A stretch of DNA of 64,000 bases, taken from NCBI GenBank assembly GCA_000002445.1, contig CH464491.1, positions 4,928,001 to 4,992,000 of the forward strand, written 5' to 3'. Every line of letters begins with the position of its first letter. Positions within the stretch are counted from its first letter, which is position 1. Source of the DNA: Trypanosoma brucei. Taxonomy: Eukaryota. A program made the position numbers and the translations under genes. Under the pieces are notes generated by a model. That model ran no database searches, was not told the DNA's origin, and saw only the letters and a list, made by a program, of their open reading frames with translations. Shown here in pieces: positions 1 through 64,000 of the stretch.

Positions 1-915
1 GTCCGAGCTGCCGTTGCACTTGCCATCGGTATGCGGTTTGCCCAGGACGTACATGGCTGGTCCGGTTGATGCCGCCGCTGCTTGGGCCCCGATTAGCGTT
101 GTAAAGCTATTTAGCTGTTGTCGGATAATCTGTCCTGTTATGCCGCTGGGTGGCTTTTTGAGGCCGCAACCGTTTTTCAATTTTGTGTATTCGGTGGCGG
201 TGGTTGTTTTGCCGCTACCGTCTCCTACTGTCTTTATGCTTATTCCATGTTTGCAAATGTTGTTGCCGTTGGTCCTGGTTTTCGCCGCTATACAGATCCA
301 CATTAAGTCGTGGCTTACTGAGATTGCTATTTTTTCCTTGGTTGCGCCGGCTGATTTGCAGTGCTCATCGATGTTAGTTTCAAGTTTCGCCTGCTCAAAC
401 TTGTTGTTGCCGTCGCCGTACAGTGCTTCCAAGATAAGCGTCTTTGCGTTGTCCGTTTCTGTGTTCGCTGATACCGCGTTGGCCTGGATGTGCTCTAGGA
501 TTGCCTTGGCGCGTTCGTGAATTTTACTAATGAAGGCGTTGGCTGCTGCTTTGGCCTCTGGGTTTTGCGGCATCGGGTAAGCTGCTTTTTGTGGATTGCC
601 TGTTTTGGCGGCTATAGCTTCCAGGTTTTGTTTTCATTGTTTTATTTGTTCGAGTTTTTGGTCGTCTTTCGTCGGCGAAAGTTCACCGTCTTTGTTCGTC
701 TTGAACGATTCCGTTGCCGTCGTCAGGTTGAGGAGAAATATGTCGTTGACAATTGCCGCTGCTGTTCTCGTGTCTAGTGTTATTGACAGGTCAGGCGCAC
801 CTTTTCCGAGACTGAGAAGGTCACAGAGCGCTTTGTATTCCCCAGCATTTCTGTTTGTTGCGGACACCGTTAAGGCAGCTCCAAATAGACACAGTGCGCC
901 GAGTACTTTGCTCAT
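1..915 (-). pseudogene. VSG: VSG (A-type N-domain), 5' part; runs off the window start. Signal peptide MSKVLGALCLFGAALTVSA. One in-frame TGA at 634-636, then the frame continues open to position 1
   Basis: Minus-strand translation gives MSKVLGALCLFGAALTVSATNRNAGEYKALCDLLSLGKGAPDLS...KLEQIKQ*KQNLEAIAAKTGNPQKAAYPMPQNPEAKAAANAFISKIHERAKAILEHIQANAVSANTE...LMWICIAAKT...KCNGSSD. This is VSG-like: a signal peptide followed by a Cys-containing N-domain. Confidence 0.8.
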
Positions 916-1539
916 GTTTGTGGTTCGAAGTTCATTTTTTCGCAGATCCATCTTTGTTTGTCGTATTGGCTTAGATATGTGCTGTGCGCGCATAAGGGTG
1001 ATTTGCGTCATGTGGTGAAAAAGGGCGTAGAACAGCATACAGGACATTAAGTACTCGGTGATTTTTGACATTTTAGTTTTACTCCCTGACAGCCTGGCTA
1101 CGAGTAATTAGGTTGCGTACTGGGGCCCCGATGTTCCTTGTCTGTATGGCAGGAAGTGTTGGCCTTTCTTCAGAATTTCTTAGTTTTAACCAAACCCCTC
1201 TGTCAGCCGCTTCACCACAGATACTCCCAGATTCAAAATCCTATTTTTTCCATCTATTGCATATTTTTGAAACGTTTTCAAAGAGTTCGTACTAAACCCC
1301 CTTCCTTCCAACTGTTCACACCAAATAATTTTTTTTTACAATCATCTTAGCTTTCCCTTTCCACGCAATTGATTTTCCAGGAAAATGAATAAATGGAGAC
1401 TCTCCAACCACTTTACTATTTAGAATAGAAAAGAATCTCTCCTCATAATTCAATCCAATCATTCCTATCCTCAAAACTAATCTTTGCCTAACAGCTTATT
1501 TTCGAATTGCACATCAAATGAGAAAAAGTTTGCATATAC

Positions 1540-2140
1540 TTTGATCTGACCACCACTCCTCGCTTCCTTAGTATTTCATTAAATGCATGTTCAAAACTTT
1601 TAAAAGCCCACACTCCTGCTGTTAAACCACCACCATTGAGATAAGGTTTGCCACTAGGAGTTGATATTAGTAAATTAGTTAATTTTTCATTCTCTTCTAT
1701 CCTGTTTCCAACATTAAAAAACTAATAACATCTCTCCACACACTCTTTGTGATACGAATTCATAACCAAATCTAACTGAGGAGCATAACATTCTGATGTT
1801 GTCATGAATATAATAGGGGAAATGTGATTCTCTTTTGCTATATCTTCTTCACTAAACTTCTCTTCATTTTCCGCACTATTTTCTATAAAATATTCCACAC
1901 ATTTTCATATTTTTCTCCGTCACTAACTATAACATCAGATCTATCCAAATGAATTTAAATATCCTCATGACTTGTATTATGGCTTTTCAAAAATTTCAGA
2001 ACCCATCTAGGCCATTTGATATGACTGTACAAACCCCTCATTTCAATTGTGATAATTTCAATATTACTTAGTTTGGCACTCAACACGAGTCTACACCATC
2101 CTTGATTTGCATGAGTTTGAACTACAACTGCAAACACTCT
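1540..2140 (-). pseudogene. Conserved subtelomeric ORF family ('family-2'), copy 1; frameshifted. Possibly a DxD glycosyltransferase-like or ESAG-related gene; identity unresolved
   Basis: ORF 1955..2137 reads FAVVVQTHANQGWCRLVLSAKLSNIEIITIEMRGLYSHIKWPRWVLKFLKSHNTSHEDI. It is homologous to 20616..20957 (+) and 57679..58122 (-). The nucleotide block 1300-2160 matches 57420-58290. Confidence 0.55.
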
Positions 2141-2371
2141 GTAGTTTTTTATTTTAACCTTGCAGTTAAAGCGGTAGAAGAACCACTAACAATGACAAAA
2201 GGGTGGTACTAGCCTTGACCGGTCCTTTGAAGTTAGATAAAGAGGGTCGGAAGGGATAGTAGCATGGTAAAAGCTGGTAGTTCTATAGCGGTCATGTTTT
2301 CATATAGATATCAGTGGCTGATTGTCCATGTTTTTTTAATTTTTTGTTTATGTTAAATTAAAAACGCCGCG

Positions 2372-61170: not shown

Positions 61171-62589
61171 TTGAAATCAGGTGTTTGCGCTTGTTACCGA
61201 GCGGCTGGCGTCCTCAGAATCTAAAATTTCCGTCTGTTGCAAAGTTTTTTTTTTTCAACATGAAATTACAATAAAAAACAGTCTAAACATAAGGATAGGA
61301 ATTTCTTTATGGTTGCAGCAATTAAACTGAAAAAACAATATAAGCTGAAAATGAAAGAAAAAACAAAAAATGTATAAATAAATAAATATATATATATAGA
61401 TTATAACATTAAATGGTAGTTGTTTTAATATATTACAATCTCTAAATAGGTTAGTTTCACCATTGTAACCAATGGTCACCATGACATAAATTTTTTACAG
61501 GGCTATAGTTTTACACACAACCCATATTTTCTACCCTTATTGAACCTATTTTTGACTCATTCTTCTTCTTTAATTCTCTAAAATACCGCAAGTGTTTTGA
61601 CTTTGAGAAATTCAAATTATATGACTTCTAACTACCTTCATCTGCTTTTAACTTTCTGTTGTTACACGCAGCATTTGTAACAATTTAACTTCTGTACTTA
61701 GTCCGACTCAGCGTCATTTTTTTGAGTTCCTTAAAAACATACCACCTTTTAAGTTTTTTTCCGCTCGAGAGCTGGTATCTCGGGGTCTTTCTTACATTGC
61801 CTACGCCACATCCACAGCTTTATTGTCTCCATTAAATGCGGTTCAGCCATTCTGGGAATATGGAACACGCGGTAATCAAATGCAGTTAATTTTTTGCCTC
61901 CATGCAAAATTAGAATTTGTGAAGTCATTACAAACTTTTCCACTTTATAGAACCCCCCTACTGGTTCATATACATGATATGTTAAGCAGTTTCCGCGTTC
62001 TTCATTTTTCCTTTTACAGTAATCCATTGTTATTCATAGTTTGAAAATGTTCATTCCAATAATATCATATTGTTACCAACACTTTTTTGTTATTATTACT
62101 ATGTCTAATAAGAAAAATTCGAAAATACATCACACTAACAAAATCCCTTGTCAACTGATTTTGTTTCTGCTTCTTCAGAGGTATATCTTACGATCTTCCA
62201 TCTGGTTAAAAACATGGTCGACAACATCTCTGAAGTAGAGTCTACACCTTTTGGTGTAAAATGTAGAGCAAAATCTCCCTAAGAATTATTTGCTTCTGTC
62301 GCGGTTTCTCCGCATGACATAGCAAATCATTTGGCATGTACACAGAATTGCATCTCTACATTATTGTCTGCTATTTTAACTTCTGTATATGATGATATCC
62401 GTCTTCGTTTCCCTGTATAAAATGCCGTCTATTGTCATTTTTTCAATTGAAAGTGCGCATATTACATCTTTCTTTGTTTATACCTCTTAATCACTGCCAC
62501 CCTCAGTCGCTTCGCTGAATTTAAGCTTTTCTTTATTTCAAAGACTTCCACTTTGTTTGATCTTTACTTTTCATCGACATTATCATTAA

Positions 62590-62690
62590 ATATTTGTACA
62601 TACACTCACATCACTCTCCTATTATTATCATCATTTATATTATTATTATTATTATATTAGTATATATACTGTCGCAACACTATTTTTATT
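62590..62690 (-). repeat. 70-bp repeat, minus orientation
   Basis: catacactcacatcactctcctattattatcatcatttatattattattattattatattag. Confidence 0.75.
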
Positions 62691-62959
62691 TTAAAGCATT
62701 AATATTATAGCACTAACTAATATCTATAAAATAACTAATATAAACTTAATTAGAGTAGCTGTCATTTCTCATACCTTATAACCGAATTACATTAAACCGA
62801 TAGGAACTTTTACGCGAATTTTACAAAACATTTAAAACTTTTTCGACAATTTATAAAATTTGTGACAGAAAGTGTTAATATATATTAAATTATATAAAAT
62901 TTTCCAAATTTTATCAAAATACTAAATTTCAAATTTCATAAAACTAAGCAAAAATCCTT

Positions 62960-64000
62960 AGAATTATCAAAATACAAGCAACTCAAAAAAGCACCAGCCA
63001 TCAAAAACAATTTCTTATTGACGAGAAAACTGGAATCGTTGCACTTGTTATCTTTACATTTTCAGTTATTGTCCTTGTCGGAATGCATTTTTGTCAGTTT
63101 CATGTTTTGACATTTTTCTTCAGTTTTCCCATTATTTTCTTTTTTTCGCTGCCTGTTCTACTTCCTTTTTACCTTCCTCACTCAAAGTACACTTTTTGCC
63201 AGTCTCTCCATCCTCCTTATAAACACACCCCTTATCCTTTAGGTTTGCGCATTCTTTCTTGTCATCTTTGGCTGCATTGCATTCTTTTTCGGCTTGTTTG
63301 TGCGTGTCTATCGGGGTGGTGTTACATTTGGCGTCGCCTTTTGCGTTTTTCAGATCGTTGTAGATGGCCGCATTCCGACGATTGTAGCATGCTAAAATTG
63401 TTACTAATCGGCTGCTGTCAGTTATTTCCACAAGCTTTTGGTTAGAAGTCTGGCCACAAAAGCTTTTTGGGATCGTTTCTTCGTCCACCTTGGCAGTGTA
63501 TTTCGTTGCACCGTCTGCAGTTGCGAGCGGCATGCTTTCCTTGATCGCTGTTTCTATCTCCCCGTTGCTGGTCGTTTCCTTGCCAAGCACGGCCTCTTGG
63601 ATTGTCCTCTTCAGAGCTGTTTGGGTTTTAAGTTCGCCTGTTTCGTTCATGTAAATCGCCTCATCTCCCTTGTGGGTGGCTTTGGCGTCGTGCCAGGCCC
63701 TTTCCCACGGGTCTGCGGTGTGGTCCTTAGCTCCGGTCAGTTCGTCTACCTTTTTTAGTGTTATGAAGGTTTGCGTCGTTGGAAGTGTTATGTATCCTGC
63801 CATGGCCGTGAGGCCGTTGATTGCGGTTGTTTTGCCTAGCCCGTCGCTTTCGTGGGCCGATAGAGCTTTGCAATAACCAGAGGATTGTGTTGGTTGTTCG
63901 CTTGATGTCGCCGTGTTTCCGCTCCCTTGAATGCCTGTAAATCCTTTCGCTGTCAGTACGGCTGGCTGCGCCTTGGCGCTTTTTATTTCAGGTAATTTGG
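62960..64000 (-). pseudogene. VSG: VSG, 3' two-thirds; the N-terminus lies beyond the window end. The GPI tail is degenerate with no proper stop
   Basis: ORF 63132..63803 reads ...ILACYNRRNAAIYNDL...CNTTPIDTHKQAEKECNAAKDDKKECANLKDKGCVYKEDGETGKKC; tail CKDNKCNDSSFLVNKKLFLMAGAFLSCLYFDNSKDF... The frame stays open upstream to 64000. Confidence 0.7.

Follow-up and report, generated by a model that had tools for sequence, protein, structure and literature searches.

The window analysed here is a 64,000-nucleotide stretch of Trypanosoma brucei contig CH464491.1, occupied largely by genes and pseudogenes for variant surface glycoproteins (VSGs). These units are arranged in cassettes with 70-bp repeats upstream and, in several cases, a conserved 16-mer in the 3' untranslated region (3'UTR) downstream, and the series is broken in places by ingi and ingi-related retroelements. 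The window is almost certainly part of the silent VSG array of T. brucei brucei TREU927, and no evidence contradicting the identification as a VSG array was found. The array itself is already known, being part of the published, annotated TREU927 reference genome, and nothing about it is new. A first-pass annotation, made from the letters alone, had likewise described a trypanosome VSG array and not a bacterial locus. Exact matches to TREU927 VSGs, VSG domain families, and solved VSG structures uphold that description; trypanosomatid matches were found, and the VSG architecture is in place.

Identity of the window and its VSG units

Four open frames anchor the identification. In an exact-sequence look-up, the products of 35335-36816, 38531-39991, 41971-43455, and 49290-50834 are identical to EAN80666.1, EAN80667.1, EAN80668.1, and EAN80669.1 ('VSG, atypical'), respectively. 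These consecutive accession numbers all belong to T. brucei brucei TREU927, are annotated as VSG, and come from a single record of 5,261,801 bp, which we infer to be chromosome 11 of the TREU927 reference genome. Within the protein collection, three of the four products are known solely from TREU927, and the fourth, that of 41971-43455, has a 100% identical counterpart in T. equiperdum (SCU70591.1). The first-pass annotation had proposed a BLASTP search with this product as a check; a search of that type returned Trypanozoon VSGs as all the best matches and, beyond the 100% matches, T. brucei VSGs throughout. Identities of 70-75% to Lister 427-type 'VSG 1125.x' entries were recorded as well. 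Open frames 25391-26662 and 51975-53390 are missing from the collection that holds the four exact matches, which would fit an annotation of the two as pseudogenes.

The remaining sequence is of the same character. There are 16 open reading frames (ORFs) of at least 250 aa, and the long ones, once repeat and antisense artefacts are excluded, encode trypanosome proteins. The G+C content is about 41% across the window, with AT-rich spacers alternating with coding blocks of 43-53% G+C, and the sign of the AT skew flips near 13.5 kb and again near 49 kb. Three scaffold gaps of 100 Ns (15362-15461, 29645-29744, and 49083-49182) and seven isolated Ns are present.

An origin in a different Trypanozoon genome (T. 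equiperdum, T. evansi, or T. b. gambiense) would explain the full identity of the 41971 product in T. equiperdum, as well as the alignment of the T. equiperdum OVI contig CZPT02001491.1 to window positions 40694-47839 (7.1 kb) at 98.7% identity. Such a source is nevertheless very unlikely. Four neighbouring products correspond exactly, and in accession order, to TREU927 entries, whereas the T. equiperdum contig shows 1.3% divergence and a rearrangement in its 70-bp region. An identity of 98.7% thus marks T. equiperdum as a close relative and not as the source. Around the seventh 70-bp block, contig positions 1-1190 align to window 39934-40932 through a local duplication or indel, in overlapping pieces of 88.7-95.7% identity. 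Compared with 98.7% elsewhere, this lower value indicates that the repeat region evolves faster than its flanks.

The VSG complement of the TREU927 window was compiled from stop-to-stop ORFs, cross-tblastn, Pfam searches on fragments, PDB sequence searches, and read-through translations; Pfam matches to PF00913, PF13206, and PF10659 were counted above curated cut-offs. It amounts to 15 units and one fragment that retains only a C-terminal region. They are listed below with their strand, the main evidence, and the glycosylphosphatidylinositol (GPI) signal where one was read.

1-915, minus strand: unit 1, B-type pseudogene, start at about 915, stop at 634-636, running off the left edge; PF13206 at E 3.7e-25 for 1-633 and 3.2e-07 for 637-1107
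4462-5892, minus strand: unit 2, pseudogene interrupted in frame by stops 5572-5574 and 4564-4566; putative signal peptide MLLIATALLVTTNVALA; GPI motif CKD/SSFLFHKKFTLMAAAFVGL
13602-14895, plus strand: unit 3, VSGsur-like pseudogene; PDB 6z79 at E 9e-73 over chain residues 108-457; C-terminal frameshift, with the GPI signal CKD/SSFLVNNKLALMVSLFAALLF in another frame
17950-19400 (start approximate), plus strand: unit 4, frameshifted B-type pseudogene; PF13206 3.1e-20; truncated GPI signal, CKD/SSFLLRNSL and then a stop
21804-23280, plus strand: unit 5, B-type pseudogene with a stop and frameshifts; PF13206 2e-36, PF10659 2.3e-20; C-domain followed by GPI signal CRS/SSFLLSKQFAL...
23657-24190 (approximate), plus strand: isolated VSG C-terminal fragment, the '16th' frame; C-domain-like sequence and GPI CSS/SSIFINKKFSLMDATYVIW, both read by eye
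25391-27000, plus strand: unit 6, A-type; PF00913 2.6e-69, PF10659 7.6e-12 for 26663-27106; open up to 26662, then frameshifted into the C-domain
35335-36857, plus strand: unit 7, A-type; PF00913 3.5e-23; canonical GPI signal FKD/SSFLVNKKYALMAEGFMSLVAF, out of frame with the ORF at 35335
38531-39991, plus strand: unit 8, VSGsur-like; PDB 6z79 3e-15; short GPI signal, NSFVIKKTPLLLEF
41971-43455, plus strand: unit 9; PDB 8b3e (VSG397) 2.5e-59, VSGsur 2.4e-32
45215-46856, plus strand: unit 10, frameshifted B-type pseudogene; PF13206 2.4e-12, PF10659 5.5e-09; GPI CKD/SSILVNKKLDFMAYVFVTLV
49290-50834, minus strand: unit 11, A-type with C-domain; PF00913 3.6e-94, PF10659 7.6e-17; GPI signal CKN/SIFLVNKKPVLMADAFADL; annotated as atypical, ending in ...KKPVLMADAFADL
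51790-53390, minus strand: unit 12, B-type pseudogene; PF13206 2.4e-51 (ORF 51975-53390); in-frame stop 51972-51974 ahead of the GPI signal CRN/FSFLLNKKFTLMDAAFVKLAVF
55487-56888, minus strand: unit 13, frameshifted B-type pseudogene; PF13206 1.3e-22 and 4.6e-16; GPI CRN/GSFLVHQKFSRSITSAFLSLLSF
59560-61100, minus strand: unit 14, B-type pseudogene broken by both stops and frameshifts; PF13206 2.9e-13; GPI CRS/PSFLVNKKLDLKSAPFMSLLF
62960-64000, minus strand: unit 15, A-type, running off the right edge; PF00913 3.5e-27; frameshift ahead of GPI CND/SSFLVNKKLFLMAGAFLSCLYF

Three N-terminal classes are represented. Pfam assigns an A-type domain (PF00913, Trypan_glycop) to units 6, 7, 11, and 15, and a B-type domain (PF13206, VSG_B) to units 1, 4, 5, 10, 12, 13, and 14. 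PDB sequence searches place units 3, 8, and 9 in the class of VSGsur and VSG397 (6z79 and 8b3e), with matches that extend across the whole N-domain. At E<0.01, Pfam returned no match for units 2, 3, 8, and 9; the N-domain of unit 2 has no PDB match either, and this unit, left without a class, is tied to VSGs only by its resemblance to units 8 and 11. In units 5, 6, 10, and 11, the C-terminal domain of VSGs, PF10659, exceeds its cut-off.

Unit 3 is closely related to VSGsur, the VSG associated with suramin resistance. Unlike VSGsur, it has lost its first ~100 residues, starting about 65 nt from the 5' end of an ingi element, and its C-terminus is frameshifted; suramin binding is not claimed for it. 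In unit 6, a motif of the SSFLVNK type occurs twice in succession (26870 and 26941) ahead of the degenerate retroelement that cuts the GPI signal of this unit.

Integrity varies strongly among the units. Hydrophobic N-termini, candidates for signal peptides, were seen by eye in units 1, 2, and 5-12; in units 3, 4, 13, and 14 they are degenerate or missing, and the N-terminus of unit 15 falls outside the window, whose edges cut units 1 and 15. In-frame stops interrupt units 1, 2, and 12, and frameshifts affect units 3, 4, 5, 6, 10, 13, 14, and 15. GPI-signal-like motifs (SSFLVNKK..., NSFVINK...) occur in each of the 14 units or fragments that have their 3' end inside the window, and the first-pass annotation had described such a signal for every frame; as read by eye, however, many of them lie out of frame or after a stop. 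Of the two GPI strings quoted there, NSFVINKAPLLLAVLLL is found literally at the very end of 41971-43455, whereas CKDSSFLVNKKFAL does not occur in the window, the closest sequences being CKDSSFLVNNKLAL (14816) and FKDSSFLVNKKYAL (36783).

Only four frames (35335, 38531, 41971, and 49290) are open from ATG to stop, and three of them (35335, 38531, and 49290) look imperfect at the C-terminus. Judged on these features, 41971-43455 looks like the sole fully canonical VSG gene. The sixteen complete VSG frames proposed at first are therefore to be read as the 15 units and the C-terminal fragment listed above, most of them broken. Dominance of pseudogenes is a recognized property of the VSG archive (PMC3708902).

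Repeats, 3'UTR motifs, and spacer pseudogenes

The 70-bp repeat unit of the window, of a kind described in PMC4858185, is AT-rich and about 76 bp long, with a run of TRR/TAA triplets followed by a GT-rich core, GTGTTGTGAGTGTG and ATATTATAATAAGA. The core GTGTTGTGRGTGTGTATATA has 15 matches against 0 expected in shuffles, and a second motif, GAATATTATAATAAGA, has 11 against 0.06 expected. An nhmmer profile built from window units recovers exactly 13 blocks of 1-2 units each, all on the strand of the local VSGs. Both the number and the matching orientation agree with the first-pass annotation.

4147-4243, minus strand: block 1, nhmmer E 9.5e-16
15137-15734, plus strand: block 2, which includes a (TAA)82 tract as well as the 100-N gap 15362-15461 (nhmmer and Tandem Repeats Finder)
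19615-19795, plus strand: block 3, two units (this and all following blocks by nhmmer)
24354-24485, plus strand: block 4
32595-32714, plus strand: block 5, with (TAA)24
37094-37193, plus strand: block 6
40222-40322, plus strand: block 7
43702-43808, plus strand: block 8
47088-47175, plus strand: block 9, E 1.8e-09
51407-51609, minus strand: block 10
55038-55222, minus strand: block 11, two units
59255-59427, minus strand: block 12
62575-62739, minus strand: block 13, degenerate, E 3.6e-08 and 3.2e-06

Neighbouring blocks lie 3-8 kb apart. From a block to the start of the downstream VSG, the distance falls into a short class of seven units (0.57, 0.91, 1.34, 1.41, ~1.45, 1.65, and 1.65 kb) and a long class of five (~2.0, 2.2, 2.4, 2.6, and 3.2 kb). 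The range of 0.6-1.7 kb given earlier thus holds for the first class but not for the second. Units 2 and 3 have no 70-bp block of their own in the window, that of unit 15 would fall past the edge, and block 9 has no VSG downstream of it ahead of the assembly gap. Self-BLAST further reveals a conserved stretch that runs from the 3' end of a VSG up to the following 70-bp block. In length, the uninterrupted (TAA)82 run at 15462-15708 far exceeds the triplet runs found in other blocks; since it is overlong and lies beside a scaffold gap, its true length has probably not been captured by the assembly.

Downstream of the VSGs, the 3'UTR 16-mer TGATATATTTTAACAC, whose sequence and role are described in bioRxiv 10.1101/2020.01.30.925776 and PMC5698767, is present as the first-pass annotation had reported. 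An exact copy follows unit 5 (23318-23333), and four near-matches were added: one with a single mismatch at 43549 after unit 9, one with a single deletion at 46907-46921 after unit 10, and two with two mismatches on the minus strand, at 4376-4391 after unit 2 and 62872-62887 after unit 15. Five matches at up to two mismatches compare with 0.07 expected, and they lie 38-94 nt past the VSG ends. After the remaining units, the motif is more degenerate or absent. A further 16-mer-like match at 54553 (plus strand) was discarded as a chance occurrence, being on the wrong strand for the neighbouring VSGs.

At least four of the five long block-to-VSG spacings are occupied by pseudogenes of ESAG3 or of a glycosyltransferase.

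1210-2157, minus strand: ESAG3 pseudogene copy 1, between block 1 and unit 1; ~79% DNA identity to 57509-58282
20681-21543, plus strand: ESAG3 pseudogene copy 2, carrying an internal deletion, found by similarity to the other copies
57509-58282, minus strand: ESAG3 pseudogene copy 3
2552-3527, minus strand: glycosyltransferase pseudogene copy 1; 79% DNA identity to 16532-17510
16532-17510, plus strand: glycosyltransferase pseudogene copy 2; similarity to hexosyltransferases (PF01762), with PF01762 itself weak in Pfam

The ESAG3 assignment comes from an exhaustive HMMER search, in which a 149-aa fragment of copy 3 (57682-58128, minus strand) is 90% identical to ESAG3 proteins of 368 aa (E 4e-86). 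Pfam, PDB, and word-index protein searches with the family fragment returned nothing. The three copies are ~79% identical to one another, explain three of the long spacings between repeat and VSG, and are considered pseudogenes because all of them contain stops and frameshifts. A resemblance of ESAG3 to a PLOD-type glycosyltransferase domain is not claimed here, the sole indication being PF25342 on ESAG3 itself at E 0.005, below the cut-off.

The product of the second glycosyltransferase copy is 70-77% identical to T. brucei UDP-Gal/UDP-GlcNAc-dependent glycosyltransferases (PF01762). Both copies are broken, and both lie inside cassettes, 3' of a 70-bp block. In the cassette of unit 1, the glycosyltransferase pseudogene stands directly upstream of the ESAG3 pseudogene. 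The 2.6-kb spacer 32714-35335, between block 5 and unit 7, is the sole long one in which neither kind of pseudogene was found, and its ORF 33388-33699 has no meaningful Pfam match.

Retroelements and the junction at 47-49 kb

The ingi retroelement noted in the first-pass annotation proved to be a full copy with the four expected domains, and a second, degenerate element can now be added. The following features are involved, together with the tract at the junction between oppositely oriented VSGs.

8284-13536, minus strand: full-length ingi non-LTR retrotransposon, 5.25 kb, with its A-tail at 8284-8293
7715-8284, plus strand: inverted fragment, 573 bp long, from the 5' region of ingi (blastn, 95.5% identity to 12952-13524)
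27050-32000, plus strand: degenerate ingi-related element, DIRE-like (tblastn), containing the N gap 29645-29744
47840-49182, unstranded: G-rich tract (49% G, isolated Ns) and the 100-N gap 49083-49182

The full-length element carries an ORF at 8552-13027 (minus strand) with PF14529 (endonuclease), PF00078 (reverse transcriptase), PF00075 (RNase H), and PF13894 (C2H2 zinc finger). It was assigned by these domains, its size, and its A-tail, and in all three respects it resembles known elements of the ingi/RIME/DIRE group. The difference lies in its rearranged site. The inverted 5' fragment directly abuts the A-tail, and no clean target-site duplication was found in the flanks read. These two features indicate a later rearrangement and do not argue against the ingi identity. 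The complex also coincides with the divergent strand switch between units 1-2 (minus strand) and units 3-10 (plus strand) and adjoins the truncated unit 3. Such an arrangement suggests that an ingi-associated rearrangement or inversion may have occurred at this switch.

The element at 27050-32000 is inserted in the GPI-signal region of unit 6. In tblastn it is colinear with ingi proteins at 25-49% amino-acid identity, with many stops, and it has no blastn match to the full ingi. A direct duplication of 213 bp (29433-29644 and 29758-29970, 77% identity) flanks the N gap within it and may represent an unmerged assembly overlap.

A second, apparent strand switch, convergent in orientation, lies at 47-49 kb. 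Block 9 is followed by about 650 nt of ordinary sequence and then, from 47840, by the G-rich tract, a 1.2-kb segment (47840-49082) in which G falls from 68% to 38% and which contains the seven isolated Ns. All G-quadruplex (G4) motifs of the window are located within it. The T. equiperdum contig matches the window through 47839 and continues with ordinary AT-rich sequence instead of the G-rich tract. Degenerate telomere repeats were considered and ruled out, as the tract contains no TTAGGG. The tract is probably a low-quality contig end, in which case the convergent plus/minus join may be a scaffolding decision; accordingly, the order and orientation of the tracts flanking 47.2-49.3 kb may reflect the assembly. 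A real, lineage-specific G4-rich element joining oppositely oriented VSG tracts is an improbable alternative. If it were true, such an element could hinder replication or recombination within the archive, as a barrier.

A silent archive for antigenic variation

Beyond its strain of origin, the nature of the locus has to be weighed against a telomeric expression site of the active type, bloodstream or metacyclic. In expression sites, too, VSGs are preceded by 70-bp repeats, and pseudogenes of ESAG3 occur there as well (PMC2567434). Bloodstream expression sites share with the window the order of 70-bp repeats, VSG, and 16-mer 3'UTR, and now and then they likewise have an ESAG3 pseudogene or an ingi located 3' of their 70-bp repeats (PMC2567434). 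Their 70-bp tracts, however, extend over 0.2-7.1 kb (PMC2567434), whereas the window presents 15 tandem VSG units, mostly pseudogenes, with blocks of just 1-2 repeat units. The RNA polymerase I promoter, the ESAG7-6-5-3-4-8-3-2-11-1 series, the single terminal VSG, and the telomere repeats of such a site are not in the window. The ORFs read or scanned, down to a length of 60 aa, include no ESAG apart from ESAG3 pseudogenes, and instead of a TTAGGG tract there are just six isolated TTAGGG hexamers. An expression site is therefore extremely unlikely.

A prokaryotic locus, be it an array of clustered regularly interspaced short palindromic repeats (CRISPR), a defence island, or an operon, is refuted by the exact T. 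brucei protein matches: the recurrence of a ~75-100-nt element 13 times gives a superficial likeness only, every assignable gene is trypanosomal, a non-LTR retrotransposon is present, and neither tRNAs nor Rfam families were found in the window. A CRISPR array consists of short direct repeats (~23-47 bp) that alternate with spacers about as long, and cas or defence genes lie in its vicinity, whereas each repeat here precedes a eukaryotic VSG gene at intervals of several kilobases, and Tandem Repeats Finder reports TAA/ATA runs and 70-bp dimers only, with no repeat-spacer array. The first-pass annotation was right to warn against this reading; the regularly spaced repeats are the trypanosome 70-bp repeat and should not be mistaken for a bacterial repeat or defence locus.

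A silent VSG array accommodates all of these features. The window shares with the described TREU927 subtelomeric arrays (PMC3708902, PMC4858185) the identity of its VSGs, the majority of pseudogenes, the 70-bp blocks of 1-2 units, the insertions of ingi and DIRE, and the pseudogenes of ESAG3 and glycosyltransferases, and no substantive difference was noted. In the cassettes, 1-2 70-bp units are followed by a spacer of 0.6-3.2 kb and then by a VSG gene or, more often, a pseudogene, whose region coding for the C-domain and GPI signal leads into a 3'UTR with the 16-mer. The series of cassettes is interrupted at three points, by the full ingi, the ingi fragment, and the degenerate ingi-related element.

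The presumed function of such cassettes follows established knowledge. Array copies would be promoterless and silent in place, and a donor would become expressed once gene conversion has copied it into the one telomeric bloodstream expression site that is active. Upstream homology for this event would come from the 70-bp repeat, and downstream homology from the conserved 3' coding region and UTR. In the literature, 70-bp repeats adjoin archive VSGs and promote donor selection (PMC4858185). Pseudogenes would not be excluded from this process, as they are expected to supply segments to mosaic VSGs; such a contribution of array pseudogenes through segmental conversion has been described (PMC3708902). 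The 16-mer, in turn, would support high mRNA stability of the expressed VSG, in line with reports that high VSG mRNA levels need this motif (PMC5698767, bioRxiv 10.1101/2020.01.30.925776).

As a by-product, the analysis provides a corrected inventory of this part of the array, covering the pseudogene status of its units, the pseudogenes within its spacers, a second and degenerate retroelement, and a suspect assembly tract. The archive to which these cassettes belong underlies antigenic variation, which lets African trypanosomes outrun host antibodies.

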